A stretch of DNA of 64,000 nucleotides from Minisyncoccota bacterium (GCA_965222715.1 OZ244961.1:76609-140608); one strand, 5' to 3'. Shown: positions 5,935 to 23,193, numbered from the stretch's first letter. Program-made: numbers and translations. The notes: generated from the letters alone by a model not told the origin.

Positions 5935-6450
5935 TTAGGCTTCGCCTTCAACCTGAAGTAGGGCGATATCAAGTGCGGCTTCAGGTATGGGAGACCCGGC
6001 GAGAATTGGTTGAAAGACGGGGTAGAAATCAGAGTATTCTCTCACCATAAGCTCAAGAGTTTGCTCAATGATCTCATACATCGTCTCGTCAGGTATGTTT
6101 TCTGAAGGAACCGAGTATCGAAAAAAAATACCAAGGTCCATTTCATCGATCGAGAAGAATCCGAGTGATGTTCGTTCGTTTACAAGAGCAAGCCCTTTAT
6201 AGACTGCATCGAGTATCTCTGGTTTCGCAATCAGATCATCATCTCGGAGTACAAAACAGACTCGTGCACCTGCGCTACTCCAGAAGGCTTCCAGCATCAT
6301 GTTTTCTGGTATAGCAACAGTGATACCGTCGCAATATTCACTCCGACTTTCATCGTATTGCCAGTCGTTCCTCTCCGCAATTTCTTTGATGTGTTGGAGT
6401 GGGCTGGACTGACTTTCCAAATGATCAGAAACTTCAGTAGGTCTCGTCAT
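5935..6450 (-). CDS. Hypothetical cytoplasmic protein, possibly YbjN-like
   Basis: 171-aa acidic protein in a GC-rich segment; weak resemblance to the YbjN sensory-regulator fold. No catalytic motif recognised. Confidence 0.35.
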   Translation of the reverse strand: MTRPTEVSDHLESQSSPLQHIKEIAERNDWQYDESRSEYCDGITVAIPENMMLEAFWSSAGARVCFVLRDDDLIAKPEILDAVYKGLALVNERTSLGFFSIDEMDLGIFFRYSVPSENIPDETMYEIIEQTLELMVREYSDFYPVFQPILAGSPIPEAALDIALLQVEGEA

Positions 6451-6577
6451 TACTTTGACCTCCTTAATCTACATCTATCTACTACAGTAATATGCTCCCT
6501 GTTTTTGTAAAGTATATATTAAGAATGATATGGAAAACGAAAAGGCCAACGACGTGTGTCGTTGACCTTGGTATTCA

Positions 6578-6778
6578 TCAGCTTCGTTGGAGAAGCTCAC
6601 GGATGCCGAAATCGAATTCGTAGACGATGTTCGGGTCGATGCCGGCGAGATGCATGATCCCAGGGCTCAGCAAAAGTGCGGTGACGAAAATTCCGATGAG
6701 GCATTCGCCCCAAAAGTCCAAGCGTTCCCGCTTCATTTTTTGTTGCCAGGAACTGAGATTTGATTTCTGTGTATACAT
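6578..6778 (-). CDS. Small membrane protein (~66 aa)
   Basis: The internal ATG at 6778 is preceded by GGAGGT. Translation MYTQKSNLSSWQQKMKRERLDFWGECLIGIFVTALLLSPGIMHLAG... has one TM helix. The ORF track's longer 106-aa version lacks an RBS. Confidence 0.3.
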   Translation of the reverse strand: MYTQKSNLSSWQQKMKRERLDFWGECLIGIFVTALLLSPGIMHLAGIDPNIVYEFDFGIRELLQRS

Positions 6779-6860
6779 GATAAGGTACCTCCTACTATTA
6801 ATAATATCATAAATAAATATATTTGTCAATAATGCGTAGAAATATAAAAAGAAGAAGCCC

Positions 6861-7178
6861 CTAAGGAGCTCCTTCGGGACTTGTTTGATTCTTTCCACCT
6901 GGCCAGCGTCTGTAGTAATAGATAAGAGCCAAGATGACGGTGTGGCAGGCGATACTGGTGAAGTAAATGATCGAGAGTTTCCAGTCGATCTCTTCTTGAA
7001 TGAGGATGTGAATCAGAACGATGACCTGCATCGCAAATGAACCCCATATCAAGAGGAGTGAAATTGAATCGGCTGTTTTTACCCGAATCAAGAGTTTGAT
7101 TTGGGGCAAAAATATCGTCCATCCAACTACTCCAATACCAGCAACAAGCCATGCGATTACTTCACGGAAGATTTCCAT
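6861..7178 (-). CDS. PQ-loop / SemiSWEET-like 3-TM membrane protein
   Basis: ~100 aa with three TM helices and the conserved P-Q dipeptide in TM1 (TIFLPQIKLLIRVKTADSIS). GGAGG RBS upstream. Confidence 0.5.
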   Translation of the reverse strand: MEIFREVIAWLVAGIGVVGWTIFLPQIKLLIRVKTADSISLLLIWGSFAMQVIVLIHILIQEEIDWKLSIIYFTSIACHTVILALIYYYRRWPGGKNQTSPEGAP

Positions 7179-7239
7179 GACTATCCTCCAGTCGGTTACT
7201 AAGTAAAATTATACTTCAATTAATAGTTTTGTCAATATA

Positions 7240-7412
7240 TTGGACACACCAAAAAACCACTTGGTACAAAGGTACAAAGTGGTCTGTTTTGGTTCAAATT
7301 GGTATAGATGTGGAAATTGTCGGGACGAGTGGAAAACCTTAATTACCAATTTGGTATATACCAGTACAGAGTGGTATATAGTGGCTTAAAACAAGGACCT
7401 TGAACCTTTTTC
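7240..7412. promoter_or_regulatory. Cluster of direct and inverted repeats upstream of the methyltransferase gene
   Basis: Near-palindrome ccacttggtacaaaggtacaaagtggt. Three copies of the tggtata(g/t)a...gtgg core: tggtatagatgtgg, tggtatataccagtacagagtgg, tggtatatagtgg. Confidence 0.3.
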
Positions 7413-8318
7413 TTGTATATGATAATATTTTTAAGTATGAAGAAAGTACCGATATATAAGAAATACAAAAAAGGAACTCATAACTATATATTAAACACTG
7501 ACACGAATGACGCCCTTCGCTCATTTGAAGATGATTCCCTTGATTTGATAGTTACAAGCCCTTCTTATTATTTAGGAAAAGATTATGAAAAAGATGAATC
7601 TTTTCAGGACTACTTAAACTATCATAAAGAGACTATCGATCTACTATACAAGAAGTTGAAAAAAAACGGATCTATTTATTGGAATGTTGCACAAACTCCA
7701 ATTAATGATGAAATAGTTCCACTAGGTGCAATTTTCTATCAGTCGTTTAAAGACGCTGGGTTTTATATGAAGAATTGGATTATTTGGCACTTTGAGGGAG
7801 GTGTAAATACGAAAGCCCGTTTCTCTGGTCGCTATGAAAATATACTTTGGTTTGTTAAAAATCCTCAAGATTACACATTTAATCTAGATGATGTTAGAGT
7901 CCCTGCAAAATGGCAAAGTGATAAAAGAGTAAATCCTAAAGGTAAGAATCCTACAGATGTCTGGGAGTTTTCTTTAGGTGATTTAAAGTCCGAAGAAGTT
8001 GATTTCTTTGTTAATGCTGTTATTTCAGACAAACGTAGGGATAAATCTGACGAAACAGATAATTTTCTATATTTAGATAGAGTAGTAAATGTAAGCAAAG
8101 AAAAGACTACTCATCCTTGCCAGTTTCCTGAGAAGTTAATAGAACGAATTATAAAAGTGTCTTCTAATAAAGGTGATGTTGTTGCAGATATCTTTCTCGG
8201 AAGTGGAACAACGGCAAAAGTCGCTTCTGATTTAAATCGAAAATTCATTGGTATAGAAAGAGATAGAGATTATTGCAATATCGCCAAGAAGAGAATTGAA
8301 AAACATGCAAAAAAGTAA
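7413..8318 (+). CDS. DNA methyltransferase, beta-class N4-cytosine/N6-adenine type (PF01555-like)
   Basis: Motif IV SPSYY (DLIVTSPSYY) lies N-terminal to motif I FLGSGTT. Conserved NPTDVW and HPCQFPEKLIERII segments. The start may be the ATG at 7437. Confidence 0.8.
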   Translation: MYMIIFLSMKKVPIYKKYKKGTHNYILNTDTNDALRSFEDDSLDLIVTSPSYYLGKDYEKDESFQDYLNYHKETIDLLYKKLKKNGSIYWNVAQTPINDEIVPLGAIFYQSFKDAGFYMKNWIIWHFEGGVNTKARFSGRYENILWFVKNPQDYTFNLDDVRVPAKWQSDKRVNPKGKNPTDVWEFSLGDLKSEEVDFFVNAVISDKRRDKSDETDNFLYLDRVVNVSKEKTTHPCQFPEKLIERIIKVSSNKGDVVADIFLGSGTTAKVASDLNRKFIGIERDRDYCNIAKKRIEKHAKK

Positions 8319-8820
8319 AATATTTGGCTCTGCGTTGATTGATTGTGTTACCACAAAATATCTTGATCCGACTCAGGAATTTTTATTTAGAGATGATTCG
8401 TTGATTTGGTTTCTTTGTAAAAATAGAGATATATATAAAGTTCAAACTCAAATATTGAAAGATTTTAAGCATGCCTTTAGGGTTGCCTGGATTTATCCTT
8501 TTGAACTAGAGGGCAATAAACCAAGTAATGATTTTTATTTTTTGTTTGCTGCGTACAAGAACAACGTTTATTTTTTTGACAAAGATCCTATCAGGGAGAA
8601 ACATATTTGGGAAAAAGTCGAGTGGGGGAAAAGAAAGAAAAACTATAACCCTAAAGGGAAAGATCCTGGGACGGTATGGATAGAAATAGAAGACGACGGT
8701 AATGGAAAAGTAATTTCTTATTCACCATATTCCAAAATAGATTTATTGGAGAGGTTGAAGATTTCTTCTCTAAAAAATAAAAAAGAGGATTTTTTAGTGC
8801 TAAGTAAGATCTCTTTTTAA
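8296..8820 (+). CDS. Degenerate methyltransferase-like paralog lacking catalytic motifs
   Basis: Collinear with the C-terminal two-thirds of the upstream MTase (KDPGTVW vs NPTDVW; YSPYSKIDLLERLKISS vs THPCQFPEKLIERIIKVSS). The motif IV position reads TTKYLD, not SPPY, and the ORF stops where motif I would begin. Confidence 0.45.
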   Translation: MKNMQKSKIFGSALIDCVTTKYLDPTQEFLFRDDSLIWFLCKNRDIYKVQTQILKDFKHAFRVAWIYPFELEGNKPSNDFYFLFAAYKNNVYFFDKDPIREKHIWEKVEWGKRKKNYNPKGKDPGTVWIEIEDDGNGKVISYSPYSKIDLLERLKISSLKNKKEDFLVLSKISF

Positions 8821-8829
8821 TATTTCCTT

Positions 8830-9573
8830 ATGCATAGAATCTATAACAAAAGTTCAAAAAAGATGAGTGGGATCAATAAAGGATCTATCGATTTCATATT
8901 CACCTCTCCTCCATATTGGGATTTAAAGGATTATTTAAATTCAGAGCAGATAGGGTATAAGCAAAGTTATACTGATTATCTTTCAGATATGCTAACAGTT
9001 TGGACAGAGTGCTTCCGTGTTTTAAAGCAAGATGGGGTAATTTGTATAAACATTAATGATCGGTTTGTGAAAGGTAAATATTATCCAATTCACTTGGATT
9101 TTTATAATCAATTAAAGTCTATTGGGTTTAAGTTTTTTGATATGTATATATGGCACAAGGCGAGTGGCGTTCCCGCTGGTAAAAACAAACTGACCGATCG
9201 TTTGGAATATATAATTGTCGCTTCTGGTAAAAAAATAAAATATAAAGATTTTAAAAAAATAGATCGATACAAAAATGACAACCTTATAAGTAGTAAATCT
9301 TGGCATGTGGTTAAAAAGGCAGGGTCAATTATTAGTTCACATCCACACCCTGCATTTTTTCCTTCGGAATTAGTTGAACTTGGGATCTTACAGTTCACTA
9401 AACCAAATGAAACAGTTCTAGATCCCTTTCTTGGAGTAGGAAATACTCTAATAGCATCTGAAAAATTGGGTAGGAAGTCAGTTGGTTTTGAAATAAATAA
9501 CCAATATATAAAAACAACCTTGTCGGTTGTTGATGATGCCACAAAAAAGAAAATCTCTGTTATTAAGAGCTAG
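8830..9573 (+). CDS. Second DNA methyltransferase, beta-class N4/N6 type
   Basis: Motif IV IDFIFTSPPYW, motif I FLGVGNT near the C-terminus, HPHPAFFPSELVE motif in between. Confidence 0.8.
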   Translation: MHRIYNKSSKKMSGINKGSIDFIFTSPPYWDLKDYLNSEQIGYKQSYTDYLSDMLTVWTECFRVLKQDGVICININDRFVKGKYYPIHLDFYNQLKSIGFKFFDMYIWHKASGVPAGKNKLTDRLEYIIVASGKKIKYKDFKKIDRYKNDNLISSKSWHVVKKAGSIISSHPHPAFFPSELVELGILQFTKPNETVLDPFLGVGNTLIASEKLGRKSVGFEINNQYIKTTLSVVDDATKKKISVIKS

Positions 9574-11567
9574 TTCATGAATTTCTCATAGAGTCGGTCA
9601 TCGATAATCTCCTCTTTTCGAAGGAATTCAATATTAATAGGCTCAAGCAGTCCTTTATCAAAAAGGGAGGTCATTCTATCAAGTAAACCTATCCCCAAGT
9701 TATTATTTTTTGATAGATCTCTGTACAAAGGAATTCTTGTCTCCCTGTCTCCGTGGGTTAATTTCCTATGACACTCCGAACATATCCCCACCAGGTTTAG
9801 ATGGTGGTCAGGCCCATTATCTGTGGAGAAAGGAATAATATGATGAAATTCCAAATAGGGCTTATTGTTTTTGTTTTTAAAAGTCGTCTTTGTACAAACA
9901 TCGCACGGAATTAACCCAGTAGTCTCTTGCGTGAAATTTTTCAAGTAGTAATTTCTGAGATTCTTTATTAGTTCTGAACTTCTTGAATTAGATGCATCTC
10001 TTGAGATGAGTGCTGATAATTCCTCTAGATTTTTTACACTGTAGTCTACATCTTCGACCAGCAACTCCTCAAGATCAATTATTGGTTTATAAACCTCCTC
10101 TCTCAACATATCTTGTGTATTTGTCAGTACTTCCAGCAATTCTGTGGATGAGTATCCAAGTACTTTTTTAAAGTAGGGGAATATTGATATTCCTTTTTTT
10201 AGTACAGCTTGGCTAAGTTTAAAATCGAACTGTCCCACAATAAGACAAATTCTTATATAAACAAGAGCCAAAAGTAGGCCTTTATCAAAATTAATGATGT
10301 ATTTACCCCACCCATAGGTAATTTCCAAATCCTCTTCCAAATCCTTCCCCTTTACCTTCCTTTTATAATTTTTAGATATAAAATCTTTCCAGTCCGAGTA
10401 TTCTTTTTGATAACCTTCGTCAAGGTAGTTAACTAGAGTCTTATAGTTGTCGAGTGTAAAATCAAACCTCTCTTTGTTTGATATTTTGAAAATTGACCCG
10501 TTTTCGGTAGAGATTATTGCAGAAGGGTTTGTTCCAGAGTCTTTTTGCTGGTTGGTGATACCTAGGACGAATTTCTTTAATTCTTTTCTAAAATCTTCAT
10601 CTTTAATATCAGCTATGCGACCAAATTTTTCAATGATTTCTTTTGTCTCTTCAAATCCACCCTCAGTTTCATGCACTAATGTGGTCAAGTTATCAGTGTC
10701 TCTAGTTCTCGCTAGTATAAATTTATACCAATCAAGATCTAAGATTTTTCTTAGGTCCAATGCTTTTAGGAGATTAAAATAAGGATGAGTATTTATATCA
10801 AAATTCTCTACGGAATGCCCTGGTATTTCGCTAATGTTTTTTATGATGGTAAAAGGTGACTGTGAAAGCATCTTTATCTTTTGATGCTCCCACACAATAC
10901 AGACCTCATGAAAATTACCGTAAAGTACTGATTTACCAACTGGTGTTAATCTATAGAAACCACTAAGATCTGCGCGATCACGACCGAAGAAAAATCCATA
11001 GTAAAAAAATATTTGTCTCTCATTCCGTATTGTTGCTGGGAAGTCAGATACTTGAGTCCTTATATCTATATCCGTCATCCCATCTTTCTTCATAGTATCC
11101 TTAAGAATCCCCAAGACCTCATTATGTGTTTTGTGTTCATAAAGCAGTTCTTTAATTTGTTTTTTGTAACCCGCTTGTCCCCCTATATCCATTAGGTACA
11201 TGAAGTAATATTTCTTTGCTTCATTGAGATAGAGGATTTGATCTTTTTCATTTGCAAAACCACCTCTATCTTTTACATATTCATAAAACCTCATTACTCT
11301 TTTTTTGTCCCTAATGTCTACAGAATAGAAAAAGTCTCTTGCGGCTTCTTGCACTTCTTCTGGAAGTGATTGGATAAAGGAGTCAAAGTTCTTGATTATT
11401 TCCTCGTAGACATTGTCATGCAATGGATCATTAAAGAATATAAAGTAATAATAAACAAACCATTTTTTTAGGTACCAGAGGGTCCCAGCCTGGCTTTCCT
11501 TGGAGAATTCCATCGATTTGGTAATCCAATAGTTCCCCGGCAAGAGGTTTTGATTAAAGCTTTCCAT
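9570..11567 (-). CDS. Large protein with C-terminal HNH nuclease motif; candidate restriction endonuclease of the adjacent R-M module
   Basis: C-terminus CDVCTKTTF...LEFHHIIPFSTDNGPDHHLNLVGICSECHRKLTH matches the CxxC...HH...N...CxxCH zinc-bound HNH signature. Convergent with and overlapping the second MTase gene. The N-terminal 500 aa are unassigned. Confidence 0.6.
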   Translation of the reverse strand: MESFNQNLLPGNYWITKSMEFSKESQAGTLWYLKKWFVYYYFIFFNDPLHDNVYEEIIKNFDSFIQSLPEEVQEAARDFFYSVDIRDKKRVMRFYEYVKDRGGFANEKDQILYLNEAKKYYFMYLMDIGGQAGYKKQIKELLYEHKTHNEVLGILKDTMKKDGMTDIDIRTQVSDFPATIRNERQIFFYYGFFFGRDRADLSGFYRLTPVGKSVLYGNFHEVCIVWEHQKIKMLSQSPFTIIKNISEIPGHSVENFDINTHPYFNLLKALDLRKILDLDWYKFILARTRDTDNLTTLVHETEGGFEETKEIIEKFGRIADIKDEDFRKELKKFVLGITNQQKDSGTNPSAIISTENGSIFKISNKERFDFTLDNYKTLVNYLDEGYQKEYSDWKDFISKNYKRKVKGKDLEEDLEITYGWGKYIINFDKGLLLALVYIRICLIVGQFDFKLSQAVLKKGISIFPYFKKVLGYSSTELLEVLTNTQDMLREEVYKPIIDLEELLVEDVDYSVKNLEELSALISRDASNSRSSELIKNLRNYYLKNFTQETTGLIPCDVCTKTTFKNKNNKPYLEFHHIIPFSTDNGPDHHLNLVGICSECHRKLTHGDRETRIPLYRDLSKNNNLGIGLLDRMTSLFDKGLLEPINIEFLRKEEIIDDRLYEKFMN

Positions 11568-11944
11568 TCTTGAAGATTAAGTCTTTTAACCCTCTTTTTC
11601 AAGGACTATTTTACTTATCGATATATAACCCTTATTATTTAGAAACAATTGAATAAAGACCTAACCCTCTTTTTTCGAGGTATGGTCGTAAATCGTAAGC
11701 CACAAAGAACCCATCATTAGGGCGTGGCTTACGTTATAAGGGGAAACTCTTATAGGGTCGCAAGACCTCCTAGTGGTGGGCTTTTTGTTTCCCCACTAGA
11801 TTATTAGCCAATAGCTAGATATATGGGAATAAAGAAAATATTTATAACTCTAGCAGTAGTGATTATTTGGGGGTTAATAATGTTCTATCAATTTGGTGGT
11901 TTCGGGAAATCATTTCTTGAGACTTGTAATCCTGACACAGGAGA

Positions 11945-12157
11945 ATGTCAGCCACTAAAATGATAGATACATTCAAAGATACAAATAAAAGGCAATGTTA
12001 TTGTGATAACCCATCATGTCGGAAGTGTTTAATGACGAATTGTATTCAGGATAGTTGTCAGTATCATTCTCTCGAAAAGAAGTTGAAAGCAAGAAGTGAA
12101 GTAAGCGACCCTGTATACCAAACAGAAGTAAAAAGAATTCAGAAGATTTTGGAGTAA
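11945..12157 (+). CDS. Small cysteine-rich protein (7 Cys), possible zinc-binding regulator
   Basis: MSATKMIDTFKDTNKRQCYCDNPSCRKCLMTNCIQDSCQYH...; isolated in a 1.2-kb AT-rich non-coding stretch. Weak call. Confidence 0.25.
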   Translation: MSATKMIDTFKDTNKRQCYCDNPSCRKCLMTNCIQDSCQYHSLEKKLKARSEVSDPVYQTEVKRIQKILE

Positions 12158-12765: not shown

Positions 12766-14562
12766 ATGTTTCAGCAATCGAGAGTATTTTTGAGCATTCT
12801 CAAAAATCATATGAACAAGAAAAGAACGAAAAAGAGTGACTGGGGAGAGGGTGCGGCAGAGACAGATATATCTAGACCTCCACGAAAACTTCCATCAAAA
12901 AATAAAGACTTACTAAAATGGGCTAAAATGTACCACTCAAAAGGTCTGTCTATTATTCCTGTCCGTAGCGACAAGAAACCAACCATTACATCATGGAAGG
13001 AGTATCAGGAAAGGAAACCTACCGAGGAAGAAATACAGAAATGGTTTTCTGACTCTACTGTTACAGGCATTGCTGTCATCACAGGAAAAATCTCAGGAGT
13101 TGTGGTTATTGATTGTGAAAAAGACTTCGACTACTCGTTGGTCGATTTTCCTGAGACGGTTGTCTCTCGTACTGGAGGAGGGGGAAAACACTTCTTTTTC
13201 CGTTATCCAAAAAATATAAAAGTTGGAAACAAAACTCGCTTTTTGCCGAATGCTGATGTTCGTGGCGATGGAGGGTATGTACTCGTTCCTCCATCTTTGC
13301 ACTATTCGGGAGGAAGTTATGAGTGGGAGAAGGAATTTGATAGAGAAAATCTTACAGACTTGCCTGAGTGGTTTCTAAAGGAATCATCTCAGCCCAACAT
13401 CAAACCTCGTGTTGTTAGTGTTGCAGAAGGTCAGCGTAACCGAACGGCAACAGAAATCATCGGTAAGTTGGTTGCTCACCTTCCTGAAAGTGATTGGGAT
13501 TCGGTGGCACTTCCATTGCTGGAGGCATGGAACGAGACAAATATTCCACCAATGGGTATTGATGAGTTACAAAGGGTCTACACCTCAATTACCGAACGAG
13601 AGCAACGAAAACACACTTCTTCGTTCAAACCAATTTCTTTCCGTGAATTACAATCCCTGTCGTCTCAAAAAACAGATTGGTTGGTAGAAGACCTGTTTCC
13701 AAGCGGGAGTGTGAACATTCTCTCTGGTTACCCTGCAAGTTACAAAACATGGCTTTTGCTCCATATCGCTCTTTGTGTTTCCAAAGGTGTTCCTGTATTC
13801 GGCAAGTTTCAAGTGAAGCAAGGTAAAGTGCTTGTTGTTGATGAGGAGAACATACATAAACTCCTTTGCGAAAGATTAAGCAAGCTCGGTGTGTCTGAGG
13901 ATTCAGATATGAAACTTTCCGTATATGCAGGATTGAAACTTGATTCAAAGCACACTATAGAAGCACTCCGTGCCTATATACAGAAAGAGAAAATCTCTCT
14001 CGTGACCATAGATAGTTTGGTTCGTATTCACGACAAAGAAGAAAATGATGCAAAACAAATCTCTGACCTCTTCGCCTCTCTACGAAAACTTTCTGACACA
14101 GGGGTTACGGTCATCATTACACACCACAACAGAAAACCATCCGTGGGTAAATCTTCCATTAGTCACGACCTACGAGGGTCTTCGGACATTCTTGCTTCTG
14201 CAGACGGTCATATTGCTGTATCACGAAAAGAAAAAGAGAGAATCGTAAAGGTCTCCCAAAATAAAATGAGGTTTAAGGAAGAGACAGATCCTTTTGAGGT
14301 TGAGTTGGTCGAGAAAAATGGAATCGTTATACCAACCTACATTGGCGTCACTAGCTCATCAAGACCCAAGAGGGATGTTGCACGAGAAAGGGTTGTGGAA
14401 TTGGTGTCGTCAGGCACTGATACTAGAAAGGCTATCGTTGAAGCATTGAGTGGAGAGTGTGGTGTAGCAACGATTGATATCGTACTGAAAGAACTCGTGA
14501 ATAAAGGTCTGCTGTCGGTTTCCACAGAGGCAAACAACCTCAAGAGGTACAGCGTTCTGTAG
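12766..14562 (+). CDS. Replication protein: Prim-Pol primase-polymerase N-terminal domain + PriCT-like + RepA/AAA_25-like P-loop ATPase
   Basis: Prim-Pol signatures (GLSIIPVRSDKKP, GIAVITGKISGVVVIDCEKD, GGGKHFFFRYP, VRGDGGYVLVPPS). Walker A-like SGYPASYKTW and Walker B VLVVDEE in the C-terminal half. Confidence 0.7.
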   Translation: MFQQSRVFLSILKNHMNKKRTKKSDWGEGAAETDISRPPRKLPSKNKDLLKWAKMYHSKGLSIIPVRSDKKPTITSWKEYQERKPTEEEIQKWFSDSTVTGIAVITGKISGVVVIDCEKDFDYSLVDFPETVVSRTGGGGKHFFFRYPKNIKVGNKTRFLPNADVRGDGGYVLVPPSLHYSGGSYEWEKEFDRENLTDLPEWFLKESSQPNIKPRVVSVAEGQRNRTATEIIGKLVAHLPESDWDSVALPLLEAWNETNIPPMGIDELQRVYTSITEREQRKHTSSFKPISFRELQSLSSQKTDWLVEDLFPSGSVNILSGYPASYKTWLLLHIALCVSKGVPVFGKFQVKQGKVLVVDEENIHKLLCERLSKLGVSEDSDMKLSVYAGLKLDSKHTIEALRAYIQKEKISLVTIDSLVRIHDKEENDAKQISDLFASLRKLSDTGVTVIITHHNRKPSVGKSSISHDLRGSSDILASADGHIAVSRKEKERIVKVSQNKMRFKEETDPFEVELVEKNGIVIPTYIGVTSSSRPKRDVARERVVELVSSGTDTRKAIVEALSGECGVATIDIVLKELVNKGLLSVSTEANNLKRYSVL

Positions 14563-14710
14563 TTTTTTGGTTTTTACCACTATATATATGAAAAAAACCA
14601 TTAAACCAAAGCATTTTTTCACCCCTCCTTAGATTTTGGAGGAATGTCTCCTAGGATAAATATAGGCCATTTTGGTCCACTTTAGTTCATTACAAGATTA
14701 ATAAAATCCT

Positions 14711-15460
14711 ATGAAGACAAAATGTATCGCTTATTGTCGGACCTCCACCGATAACCAAAAGGAGGAAAAAACTATTGAATTACAGGTTGAAAAACTAACG
14801 GAGTATGCAGAGCAGAACAATATTGAGATAGTCCGTTGGTTTAAGGATGACGGAGTAAGTGGTGGTCTTGAAGAACGACCTGCCCTTATGAGTCTCATGA
14901 AATTCCTTGAAACAAATATGGATGTAGAGGCAGTCCTAATCTACAAACTAGACCGACTTGCTCGAGACCTCTACATACAAGAAGGTCTTATACAGGAATT
15001 CACTAAGCTTAAACGAAGAGTCATATCTTCTATGGAATCTAACCTAGAGGGCAATGACCCATTTCGTAAAGCTTTTAGACAAATGCTCGGTATATTTTCT
15101 GAATTTGAGAAATCAATGATTACACTTCGGATGAAAAACGGCAGAGCCAGTTCGGTAGCAAAAGGTAATTGGCACGGAGGAAGCATCTACGGATACGATC
15201 ACGGAAAGAACGGAGAACTTATCATTAATAAAGCAGAATCGGAGGTCATCAAAAGGATTTGGCATCTAAAACGGTACAAACAGATGAATGCTTCTCAAAT
15301 CTCAAAAATCCTTAACGAAGAAAAAGTTCCAACAAAACGGAAAGATACAAAATGGTACCCACTTACCGTAAGGAAGATACTCAGAAATCCTATTTACCGA
15401 GGAGTCATTAGGTACAAAGGAAAAACTTATGAAGGAAATCACGAACCAATCCTCAAATAA
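14711..15460 (+). CDS. Serine recombinase, truncated large-serine-recombinase type (lacks zinc-ribbon and coiled-coil)
   Basis: N-terminal resolvase motif CIAYCRTSTDNQ (catalytic Ser). Recombinase-domain segment GGSIYGYDHG...YRGVIRYKGKTYEGNHEPIL ends where the zinc-ribbon region would begin. Confidence 0.75.
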   Translation: MKTKCIAYCRTSTDNQKEEKTIELQVEKLTEYAEQNNIEIVRWFKDDGVSGGLEERPALMSLMKFLETNMDVEAVLIYKLDRLARDLYIQEGLIQEFTKLKRRVISSMESNLEGNDPFRKAFRQMLGIFSEFEKSMITLRMKNGRASSVAKGNWHGGSIYGYDHGKNGELIINKAESEVIKRIWHLKRYKQMNASQISKILNEEKVPTKRKDTKWYPLTVRKILRNPIYRGVIRYKGKTYEGNHEPILK

Positions 15461-16895
15461 TGAATTTCTAGCTTATGTTCGGGTAAGCTCGAGAGATCAA
15501 TCACGAGGGACATCTATTAAAGAACAGAAAGCTCACATCCAAAGGTATGTACACCAGAAAGGTTTTCGGGTTGTTAAGTATTACGAGGAGGTAGAATCTG
15601 CATCTAAAGCTGGAAGAGGTACTTTTGACACAATGATGAAAGACTTACGAGAAAATAAACATCAGGGGATTATATTTCACAAAGTTGATAGAAGCGCTAG
15701 AAACCCAAAAGACCAAGCTTTGCTTTATGAGCTTATGCAAGAGGGCTTTGAGTTACATTTCGTTGCGGAGAATCTATCAACTATTGATCCAATGGCGAGG
15801 AATATGATGTATATGCTCTGGGGTATGGCTTCTGGGTATAGTGAAAATCTAAAAGCAGAAATTAATAAAGGTCAGTTGGGTAGGTTAAAGCAGGGTCGCA
15901 ATCCTGCATATATTCCACTTGGGTACAAAAGAGCAGAAGAATGTAGAGCCGTTATTGATACAGACAAAGCACCCTTAATAAAAACTCTCTACGAGGATTA
16001 TGCTACTGGTCGTTACACAATGAAAACGATCGGAAAGAGGGCAAATAAAATCGGCTTAACCAATCGTCATGGTAATAAGGTTGATAAAAACGGAATAGAC
16101 AGAATACTCAGCAACACTTTTTACTACGGCCTCATCACTCATAAGAAAGGTATCTTCCCAGGTGAACATGAGCCACTTATATCAAAATCTCTTTATGACC
16201 GTGTTCAGTACATCAGAGAATTGAGGGGTTTTAAAAGAGAGGTGTCTCACAACTATATTTTTCAGGGGATGATGAAATGCCCCTGTTGTCATCAGCCGTT
16301 AAAATTAATGACATCAAAGAGAATATTCATCTACTACTATTGCAGAGAGAAAAGCTGTGACTTTAAAACTCTGCGAGAGGAATACGTCAGTCTCCTTATG
16401 CTACAGGAGTTAAGAAAGATAGAATTTAAGAATGAGGAACTCGAAGCGTTCAGGAAAGCACTAAACGCCTTTAAAAAAGTTGCAGAAAAATCCAGAGAAG
16501 AACAATCTCGTGTTATAGACCTTGAGCTAAAGAAGTTACGCTCTCGTCTCGATGACCTACTAAATAAATTTGTCGATGAAAAGATTGATGATGAAACCTA
16601 CAATCGAGCCCGAAAAGAGTTGCTTGATAGAGAGGTTATTCTTAAAGAAAGGAGAAGGGCTCTCGAGGATGGAGACAATAAAAAATTTGACCAAATTGAG
16701 AAACTCGGAAAACTACTTAAAAGTCCTTCCGTTGCTTACGAAAATGCTGATTCTATTGATAAAAGGAGGTTACTCAAAGTAATGGTGGAAAACCTTCACT
16801 TCGAGGGAGAAAAGCTTGTAATTAAATGGAAAAAGCCGTTTGACATGATAGCCAAACGACCTATTTCCGAAACTAGTGGAGATGGCGGGGATTGA
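15429..16895 (+). CDS. Large serine recombinase (resolvase + recombinase + zinc beta-ribbon + coiled-coil)
   Basis: AYVRVSSRDQ catalytic motif, recombinase domain, CPCCHQP...YYYCREKSCD zinc ribbon, long C-terminal coiled coil. The last ~6 codons overlap the tmRNA 3' end. Confidence 0.8.
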   Translation: MKEITNQSSNNEFLAYVRVSSRDQSRGTSIKEQKAHIQRYVHQKGFRVVKYYEEVESASKAGRGTFDTMMKDLRENKHQGIIFHKVDRSARNPKDQALLYELMQEGFELHFVAENLSTIDPMARNMMYMLWGMASGYSENLKAEINKGQLGRLKQGRNPAYIPLGYKRAEECRAVIDTDKAPLIKTLYEDYATGRYTMKTIGKRANKIGLTNRHGNKVDKNGIDRILSNTFYYGLITHKKGIFPGEHEPLISKSLYDRVQYIRELRGFKREVSHNYIFQGMMKCPCCHQPLKLMTSKRIFIYYYCREKSCDFKTLREEYVSLLMLQELRKIEFKNEELEAFRKALNAFKKVAEKSREEQSRVIDLELKKLRSRLDDLLNKFVDEKIDDETYNRARKELLDREVILKERRRALEDGDNKKFDQIEKLGKLLKSPSVAYENADSIDKRRLLKVMVENLHFEGEKLVIKWKKPFDMIAKRPISETSGDGGD

Positions 16896-17289
16896 ACCCG
16901 CGTCCATTGTTGGGTACATAGATGAGTCTACAGAGGGCTAGTTTATTTTAATCTGCCAATAGGCAGAGGTTAAACAGAGTGCGTAAAAAATAAACAAAAT
17001 CACACTATGCCGAGTTCCGTAGTTTAAAGATAGGTATTGGAACGGGTACCTACTCGAGATTAGTGGGTATAACACCACAGCGTTCATACTAATCAACTAA
17101 CCGTGTGGCGATCGCACCGCGAGCTTATGCTCGAGCGTATGCGAATTGGAAGTCACTCATCTTGAAAGGTGAGAGATTTCCGAGTGTAGATTTCTTTGCA
17201 TCTACAAGTTCTCAGTTTTTATAGCAGTACTGAGGCTACTCCCTTGCACATGTATATACGAATCAACAGTGTCGAAGCCAATCATCCCC
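16877..17289 (-). ncRNA. ssrA: tmRNA (transfer-messenger RNA)
   Basis: Minus-strand 5' GGGGATGATTGGCTTCGAC... and 3' ...GGACGCGGGTTCAATCCCCGCCATCTCCA (tRNA-Ala-like acceptor with G3-U70, T-arm GGTTCAATCC). Internal tag ORF ...AKKSTLGNLSPFKMSDFQFAYARA* follows an in-frame TGA. smpB lies directly adjacent. Confidence 0.75.
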
Positions 17290-17354
17290 CACCTTCAATC
17301 TCGTCGAAACCAGATTGAAGGTGGGGAAGGACTCGCCAGTTTTTTATTACTACA

Positions 17355-17807
17355 CTAACGATTCTCTTGTTTCAAAGTTCTCTCAATTGCTCGCTTACTC
17401 TCGCGACTTTTTATGGTTTCTCGTTTATCAAACTTCTTCTTACCTTTACCAATTGCGAGTTTTAGCTTCAATTTTCGCCCAGCATTATACACTGAAATTG
17501 GCACTATTGTCAATCCTTTCTGTGATTCTGCGCCAGCGAGTGTTCCTATCTCTTTTTTACTTAACAGTAGTCGCCGAGTCCGTTCAGGGTCGTAGTCTTT
17601 TGGTGTGTTTGAGGGTTGGTACGGTGGAATGGTTGCACCGACAAGAAATGCCTCATTATCACGCACCACCACATACGCACCTTCAAGACTCCCTAGCTTA
17701 TTACGGAGTGCTTTTACCTCAAAACCAAAAAGCTCCATCCCTGCCTCAAAGGTCTCAAGGAGTTCAAAATCAAATGATGCTTTTTTATTCCTAATTACAT
17801 CAGCCAT
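17355..17807 (-). CDS. smpB: SsrA-binding protein
   Basis: IRNKKASFDFELLETFEAGMELFGFEVKALR...LLLSKKEI is canonical SmpB. Confidence 0.9.
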   Translation of the reverse strand: MADVIRNKKASFDFELLETFEAGMELFGFEVKALRNKLGSLEGAYVVVRDNEAFLVGATIPPYQPSNTPKDYDPERTRRLLLSKKEIGTLAGAESQKGLTIVPISVYNAGRKLKLKLAIGKGKKKFDKRETIKSRESKRAIERTLKQENR

Positions 17808-23112: not shown

Positions 23113-23186
23113 CCACCCTTAGCTCAGTTGGTTAGAGCACAGAGCTTATATCTCTGCGGTCCCAGGTTCGAATCCTGGAGGGTGGA
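23113..23186 (+). tRNA. tRNA-Ile (anticodon TAT)
   Basis: Cloverleaf with acceptor ccaccct/agggtgg, D-arm gctcagttggttagagc, anticodon loop cttatat (UAU), T-arm ccaggttcgaatcctgg. No CCA encoded. Confidence 0.7.
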
Positions 23187-23193
23187 CTAGGTG

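Follow-up and report, generated by a model that had tools for sequence, protein, structure and literature searches.

Positions 7413-11567 of a 64,000-nt stretch of Minisyncoccota bacterium DNA (GCA_965222715.1 OZ244961.1:76609-140608; the whole stretch is hereafter the window) encode what we read, with a probability of about 0.8, as an intact Type II restriction-modification (R-M) module of the Type IIS kind, located on an integrative island adjacent to the tmRNA gene. Four open reading frames (ORFs) were read in the module, and the ORF list places them at 7413-8318 (+, 301 aa), 8296-8820 (+, 174 aa), 8830-9573 (+, 247 aa) and 9570-11567 (-, 665 aa). They correspond to a methylase, M1, of the type termed MA in related loci; a methylase-fold middle ORF; a second methylase, M2, equivalent to the catalytic half of a larger methylase termed MB; and a convergent nuclease, R, the stop codon of which overlaps that of M2 by 4 nt. 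M1 likely starts at the ATG at 7437, 24 nt downstream of the mechanical ORF start (TTG 7413), and the middle ORF likely starts at the ATG at 8305, 9 nt downstream of its mechanical start. The features of the module are as follows.

7437..8318, + strand: M1 (MA), class-beta amino-methyltransferase, 293 aa from the ATG, PF01555
8305..8820, + strand: pseudo-methyltransferase subunit, 171 aa from ATG 8305 (ORF174 from TTG 8296)
8830..9573, + strand: M2 (catalytic half of MB), class-beta amino-methyltransferase, 247 aa, PF01555
9570..11567, - strand: R, putative restriction nuclease, 665 aa, comprising from the N-terminus a recognition region, a flexible linker and an HNH domain
10080..11567, - strand: R residues 1-496, putative DNA-recognition region (conserved motifs, fold match)
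9753..9905, - strand: R residues 555-605, HNH (beta-beta-alpha-metal) core with a CxxC...CxxC zinc site, PF01844

Linkage of the nuclease R to a methylase set

That the HNH protein is a restriction enzyme is argued chiefly from its conserved linkage to methylases. Related loci were gathered in three ways, by exact look-up, by a one-genome-per-species scan that gave 47 loci and by two further look-ups, and the four proteins of the window were mapped onto all of them. The full set, comprising R, MA, the pseudo domain of the middle ORF and the M2 domain, was found in 39 of 45 genome loci, the other six being either cut by a contig end (four) or decayed (two); among the loci with enough flank, this amounts to 39 of 41, spread over at least six phyla. 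The hosts include Bacteroidota, Bacillota, Campylobacterota (Aliarcobacter and Sulfurimonas), Ca. Paceibacterota/Patescibacteria, Gastranaerophilales, Elusimicrobiales and a Pelagibacteraceae metagenome-assembled genome (MAG), and the loci numbered L001, L002, L005 and L057, together with the Pelagibacteraceae MAG, carry R and the methylase set as well. Cultured carriers include Aliarcobacter cryaerophilus (CP060694), Sulfurimonas sp. CS5 (NZ_CP180409), Herbinix hemicellulosilytica T3/55 (NZ_CVTD020000026) and Peptostreptococcus sp. D1 (NZ_FONP01000007). MA, of ~270-340 aa in the related loci, and MB were both present in all complete loci. The commonest order was R, MA and MB in one direction, and in the window and in L001, L008, L012, L054 and L057 MA and MB converge on R. 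The linkage thus survives inversion of R, and the methylase parts can be fused, as in the triple fusion of L037, or split without its being lost. An earlier note on this DNA, made from the sequence alone, had proposed an R-M module here, and the recurrence of R with its methylases in both convergent and co-directional arrangements upholds that proposal.

The decayed copies fall into a pattern. R genes broken by frameshift or truncation were found in L019, L048, L049, L050 and L051, and in three of these (L019, L049 and L050) a frameshifted R stands beside intact methylases, while L051 lacks MA and has a truncated MB, and no methylase was found in L048. Such decay of R beside persisting methylases is what one would predict for a nuclease that is toxic unless the methylases are present. 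As in a Type II system, the module combines methylases with complete motifs (M1 and M2) and a separate, adjacent nuclease gene that is evolutionarily linked to them.

The catalytic part of R is an HNH domain. The convergent 665-aa ORF and its CxxC...HH...N...CxxCH pattern, both pointed out in the earlier note, are real: R matched Pfam PF01844 (HNH) with an E value of 9e-8 at residues 555-605 (translated segment CDVCTKTTFKNKNNKPYLEFHHIIPFSTDNGPDHHLNLVGICSECHRKLTH), PF01844 was present in all 36 relatives compared, and residues C555, C558, H575, H576, N591, C596, C599 and H600 were invariant among those 36. The structural model places a strand-strand-helix layout at residues 573-605, as in members of the HNH/His-Me finger group. 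Kinship with Cas9 or IscB, which the earlier note had named as a finding that would tell against its proposal, did not appear, and R as an IscB/Cas9-type fragment was excluded, since the NCBIfam match reached 23.6 bits against a cutoff of 175 and covered only the HNH region, and IscB matches in the PDB had E values of 0.4-0.5. Because the methylase linkage of R is conserved and there is no intron or intein around the gene, a homing endonuclease was set aside on grounds of context.

The region preceding the HNH domain is a compact family of its own. Of the ~240 homologues of R, most were of ~680 aa and aligned with R over its whole length at 30-60% identity, and the N-terminal region carried the conserved motifs LPGNYW.TKSMEF, SGTLWYLKK, GGQ.G, D175..RNERQ, WEHQK and KELKK. 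No Pfam family matched residues 1-550 in any of the 36 members, and a search with residues 1-500 returned only 109 clusters among 1.84 billion representatives, which is why we regard the recognition region as compact. In the AlphaFold2 (AF2) model of R, with a mean predicted local distance difference test score (pLDDT) of 89.3 and a predicted template-modelling score (pTM) of 0.88, only residues 497-508 fell below a pLDDT of 50, and this disordered segment parts the N-terminal region from a C-terminal module made of helices and the HNH domain. A Foldseek search of the model against the PDB gave eight significant matches, all of them chains of Nt.BspD6I (E 3e-5 to 9e-4, probability 1.0), and nothing else below an E value of 0.8. 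The match was colinear over ~580 columns, with a global template-modelling score (TM-score) of 0.25 and 10% identity, and would support a Type IIS-like layout of R, not family membership. The view of the earlier note that the N-terminal ~500 aa have no recognisable similarity therefore holds for sequence families and fails at the level of the fold, and the likeness to Nt.BspD6I strengthens the Type IIS idea rather than pointing to a wholly novel recognition domain. According to the AF2 model and the fold match, recognition and cleavage reside in separate domains of one chain, as in Type IIS enzymes, and the two methylase activities of MA and MB, separate or fused, are likewise those of a Type IIS system, presumably with one activity for each strand.

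R varies among its relatives in the number of HNH domains. Seven relatives of 870-908 aa (P0407, P0414, P0415, P0422, P0427, P0433 and P0445) carry two tandem HNH domains behind the same N-terminal region, and two tandem R paralogs stand beside one methylase set in L011 (Sulfurimonas sp. CS5, 6055-10205) and in L057 (5001-10649). This doubling of the domain or the gene would fit two strand cuts for each binding to an asymmetric site. No relative of R turned up in the plasmid collection. Among the viral contigs there were only two, and we conclude that the family is not notably phage-borne. A literature search that had REBASE outside its scope found no characterised member of the R family and no one- or two-HNH Type IIS variants; as far as that search goes the family is uncharacterised, and a putative REBASE entry or a prototype may exist.

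The two methylases and the methylase-fold middle ORF

M1 and M2 are class-beta methyltransferases, in agreement with the earlier note. M1 matched Pfam PF01555 (N6_N4_Mtase) with an E value of 1.3e-58 and the PADLOC model MTase_II with 1.8e-63, M2 matched PF01555 with 5.8e-46, and dozens of PADLOC Type II methylase models matched the two ORFs. In both, motif IV precedes motif I, the class-beta order (TSPSYY before FLGSGTT in M1, TSPPYW before FLGVGNT in M2). That both are SPPY enzymes, as the earlier note also stated, is true of M2 (SPPYW); M1 has SPSY, with S instead of P as the third residue. Among the MA proteins, motif IV reads SPSY in the window and L001, SPGY in L008 and L012, and SPPY elsewhere; the M1 orthologues in L001, L008 and L012 are 68-71% identical to M1. 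The nearest solved structure to M1 is M.MboIIA (E 7e-29), and that to M2 is TTHA0409 (E 3e-25). M2 is identical to the database protein P0240 and shares 36-43% identity with the C-terminal domain in the fused methylases, and in the motif table the segment between motif VIII and the HP..P motif is shortest in M2. M1 and M2 share ~25-30% identity and have different recognition loops.

The S-P-P-Y form of motif IV is usual for N4-cytosine enzymes. The S-P-P/S-Y motifs hint that M1 and M2 may methylate cytosine at N4; the nearest solved relatives of M1 are adenine enzymes (M.MboIIA and M.RsrI), and those of M2 are mixed as to base.

The middle ORF, translated from ATG 8305 (171 aa), is identical to the database protein P0121. 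On its own it had no Pfam match and only a short BLAST match to M1. The profile of its family aligned with that of the MA family over 150 columns, starting immediately behind motif IV and ending immediately ahead of motif I (hhalign probability 97.5%, E 5.5e-12), and also matched M.RsrI (E 1.8e-9) and M.MboIIA (E 4.7e-7). The ORF lacks motif IV and motif I, its chain stopping just before the latter. Across the family, neither [DNS]PP[YFWH] nor F.G.G occurred in any of 40 pseudo domains outside the triple fusion of L037, a nominal exception in which the motifs come from the MA portion, and the live domain with SPPY and F[LV]GSG was present in 37 of 37 fused MB proteins. The middle ORF is thus a derived, inactive relative of the class-beta methylases rather than an active PF01555 member.

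Despite this lack, conservation of the pseudo domain is strong. Its profile, built from 30 sequences, has 17 invariant columns, and the best conserved feature is a near-invariant 35-residue loop, (D)PIREKHIW..VEWG.R..NY...GKDPG.VW, read in the window as DPIREKHIWEKVEWGKRKKNYNPKGKDPGTVW, at the position where class-beta methylases hold their DNA-contacting region. The middle ORF is 57% identical to its counterpart in L001, 68% identical to one metagenomic protein, and shares 41% identity with residues 29-165 of the 482-aa fused methylase in L005. In the co-directional systems its equivalent forms the N-terminal ~170 aa of MB (445-535 aa), the C-terminal domain of which is the homologue of M2. 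A separate pseudo gene was also found in the Patescibacteria-like L001, L008 and L012, in the Cytophagales L007 and L019, in the Pelagibacteraceae L054, and in L056 and L057, and the split state recurs in many stand-alone metagenomic proteins of 170-205 aa (pseudo) and ~250 aa (M2-like). We therefore differ in part from the earlier note, which had described an inactive methylase paralog between the two methylases: the ORF is methylase-derived and inactive, as stated there, and it is a conserved working part, in most systems the N-terminal domain of MB. On these comparisons it is a maintained component of the second methylase, not a decaying paralog or relic.

In the window the pseudo-subunit ORF and M2 share a reading frame, separated by a TAA and 9 nt (8818-8832). 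The arrangement suggests coupling by termination and reinitiation; no obvious ribosome-binding site was seen at the junction. Joining of the two by readthrough or recoding was ruled out: the stop codon is a TAA, and sister loci have their splits in other frames, with overlaps. In L002 (Aliarcobacter cryaerophilus CP060694, 10890-12497), the linker between the dead and live domains contains a perfect (NSSLD)n repeat of ~13 copies, which could vary in length between strains.

Class-beta methylases have been argued to work only as dimers, in which one subunit turns its recognition region towards the catalytic pocket of its partner, with M.EcoP15I and CcrM as examples of such a division of labour and METTL3-METTL14 and MTA1-MTA9 among the hetero-dimeric members (PMC7544214). 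By analogy, we infer that the middle ORF may be the recognition partner of a pseudo-heterodimeric methylase. In an AlphaFold model of a fused MB both domains folded (pLDDT 74.6, pTM 0.52) and the fold matches were to generic class-beta methylases; as the model gives no confident inter-domain geometry, the pairing is put forward here as a prediction. The literature search described above did not find an inactive methylase partner in a bacterial Type II system.

Taking these observations together, an asymmetric site is predicted on account of the two dissimilar methylases and the architecture of R, and R would be expected to behave as a Type IIS enzyme, cutting at a fixed offset from that site. 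R would bind the site via its N-terminal region, which resembles Nt.BspD6I and hence FokI, and its HNH domain would cut near the bound site. With a single HNH domain per chain, R would require either two molecules, in a transient FokI-like dimerisation, or sequential nicks for cleavage of both strands, a task that its relatives may solve with two HNH domains per chain or two nuclease genes. An M1 homodimer would protect one strand, and the dead subunit with M2 would form a pseudo-heterodimer protecting the other, the dead subunit supplying the sequence-reading loops and M2 the catalysis. The fuller proposal, that the second methylase is an obligate pseudo-heterodimer in which the dead paralog reads DNA via the invariant loop and offers one strand of an asymmetric site to the live subunit, and that R is a new Type IIS scaffold uniting a BspD6I/FokI-like reader with a McrA-type HNH domain, is a tentative one, to which we give somewhat less than even odds.

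The integrative island and alternative readings

At 33-35% G+C, the module forms a trough in the window, which is elsewhere mostly at 39-44% with one richer stretch near 20-22 kb, and it is carried by a low-GC, integrative island of ~9.7 kb that ends at the tmRNA gene and smpB. The remainder of the island occupies 12766-17807 of the window, and the following features were located beside the module.

11658-11768, + strand: LOOT RNA (Rfam RF03000), full length, 71.9 bits against a gathering score of 46.4
12766-14562: island gene for a PrimPol + PriCT + AAA_25 replicase
14711-15460: serine recombinase 1, 249 aa, which looks truncated
15429-16895: serine recombinase 2, 488 aa, with a zinc-ribbon domain; overlaps the 3' end of the tmRNA gene
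16874-17289, - strand: tmRNA gene, at the island end, with smpB next

The island has a PrimPol/AAA_25 replicase and two serine recombinase genes in tandem, and the R-M module is therefore carried as the cargo of a tmRNA-adjacent integrative element. Only weak 19-nt matches emerged when att-type direct repeats were sought around the island, and we claim no border; a scan of the region for promoters and terminators stayed below shuffle expectation. The LOOT RNA lies inside the island, 90 nt upstream of the start of the R gene and divergent from it. A second LOOT RNA (85 bits) was found in the Ca. Paceibacterota locus L008 at 11751-11867 (+), ~1.6 kb from the module on the methylase side, and none in L001, L012, L054 or L007; the RNA may be a marker of the mobile element and not of the R-M system. 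A cysteine-rich ORF of 70 aa (CYCDNPSCRKCLMTNCIQDSCQYH, 11945-12157, +), situated between this RNA and the PrimPol gene, gave no family match. Elsewhere in the window, at 23113-23187 (+), is a tRNA-Ile with the anticodon TAT, an uncommon bacterial means of reading AUA.

Four observations weigh against an intact Type IIS module. The HNH core of R is closest to that of the modification-dependent McrA, and its best PADLOC match is a Type IV model; the SPSY form of motif IV in this lineage, in place of SPPY, makes the activity of M1 uncertain; the fused-MB model offers no confident packing of the dead and live domains; and R itself is missing from a collection of 15 billion proteins although its ORF is full length. 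That collection held nothing above 60% identity to R, whereas the neighbouring M2 and middle ORF were present, and the R gene was perhaps left uncalled or flagged in the source annotation.

These points bear on several other explanations. That R is a Type IV, modification-dependent nuclease of the McrA kind merely neighbouring unrelated or orphan methylases is suggested by its database matches: the R family profile matched E. coli McrA (PDB 6ghc) with an E value of 6.6e-15 (2.4e-7 from the single sequence), the best sequence match in the PDB, and the best PADLOC match was mREase_IV (E 4.8e-8). The profile alignment is, however, confined to the HNH module, and the single-sequence match reaches ~75 residues upstream of it. 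The N-terminal 500 aa are unrelated to the reader of McrA and resemble a Type IIS enzyme instead, and R neither has a modified-cytosine reader of that kind nor is a solitary gene. The same two methylases stand beside R in 39 of the 41 informative loci, whatever the phylum or the gene order, an arrangement that would be self-destructive if the enzyme were methyl-directed, and the loss of R with retention of the methylases points the same way; we regard this explanation as highly improbable. The methylase linkage likewise argues against any solitary McrA-type or homing nuclease.

A non-functional remnant, in which a nonsense mutation has split MB and SPSY has crippled M1, would account for the single frame shared by the dead ORF and M2 with only a TAA and 9 nt between them, and for the departure of M1 from the SPPY consensus. 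Yet the split recurs, in other frames and with overlaps, in L001, L008, L012, L054 and L057 and in dozens of metagenomic proteins; SP[SG]Y is common to four genomes with an intact R; the four ORFs of the window are full length and keep every family-invariant residue; and an intact R beside dead methylases would be lethal, all of which makes a remnant quite unlikely. Whether R cuts both strands at all can also be asked, as it has one HNH site per chain, its fold relative is a nickase subunit and the module adjoins PrimPol-helicase and serine recombinase genes, so that R could be a strand-specific nicking enzyme, like Nt.BspD6I alone, or could serve the mobility or replication of the island. Most loci, however, have no such mobility genes near the module, so tight a linkage to methylases speaks for an activity that cleaves DNA and is toxic, and relatives that double the HNH domain or gene suggest that two cuts are needed; this alternative is unlikely. 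Finally, two methylases alone do not prove asymmetry, and the site could be palindromic (Type IIP), with methylases that duplicate each other or have different substrates, as in DpnII. Such a site is very unlikely in view of the large, monomer-like R with its separate recognition region and linker-tethered nuclease, of its Type IIS fold relative, of the low identity and differing recognition loops of the two methylases, and of the dedicated dead partner of one of them, which fits a hemi-specific, asymmetric task.

We therefore retain the reading of an intact Type IIS module, as a defence system one of an ordinary kind, which is carried by a tmRNA-adjacent island, its probable host being a small-genome bacterium. 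The closest relatives of the module include one in a Ca. Paceibacterota MAG, and close copies occur in SAR11-type and gut bacteria. The compact, uncharacterised and Type IIS-like R family, with interchangeable one- and two-HNH modules, is a possible source of new offset-cutting or nicking enzymes. The conserved dead methylase domain or subunit would represent a prokaryotic pair of active and inactive class-beta members, and, being naturally both fused and split, the dead subunit and M2 would make the model of an obligate dimer with division of labour directly testable with two small proteins. If this is true, bacteria already use the dead-partner solution seen in the eukaryotic METTL3-METTL14 and MTA1-MTA9, pairs in which METTL14 and MTA9 are the catalytically inactive partners.

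Comparison with known systems

In composition, the module is closest to the HpyAII/MboII type. HpyAII is an HNH Type IIS enzyme (GAAGA 8/7) accompanied by two separate exocyclic amino-methyltransferases, one per strand (PMC7494987), and the module of the window likewise joins one HNH nuclease of predicted Type IIS behaviour to two methylases, of which M1 has M.MboIIA as its nearest solved relative. No dead methylase-like partner is described for HpyAII, however, and R, with 665 aa and a BspD6I-like N-terminus, is much larger, the nucleases being compared here by description only.

In nuclease layout, the closest system is Nt.BspD6I/BstNBI (GAGTC). Nt.BspD6I is built like FokI, with DNA binding in an N-terminal domain, catalysis in a C-terminal one and a linker domain in between (PMC8533099), and serves as the large subunit in a Type IIS heterodimer (PMC8533099; PMC4081073). 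R shares the order of DNA-binding region, linker and nuclease. By contrast, the catalytic domain of Nt.BspD6I is of the PD-(D/E)XK type and that of R is a McrA-type HNH domain, and BspD6I uses a separate small catalytic subunit, which has no counterpart in the module. With 10% identity, no profile match and HNH in place of PD-(D/E)XK, R falls outside the BspD6I/BstNBI/PleI/MlyI family. The closest sequence relative of its catalytic module is E. coli McrA, in which the CxxC...HH...N...CxxCH layout recurs; McrA is a solitary Type IV enzyme of small size with another N-terminal reader, whereas the HNH domain of R is joined to a 500-aa region and paired with methylases.

For the second methylase, the comparison is with the M.EcoP15I Mod2 and CcrM dimers, which belong to the same fold class and in which one subunit reads the DNA while the other methylates it (PMC7544214). 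These bacterial class-beta examples are homodimers of active subunits, while the module of the window and its relatives have a dedicated, truncated and dead paralog, either fused or separate. The dead-plus-live arrangement, provided that the two proteins pair as we propose, would thus mirror that of METTL14 and METTL3.

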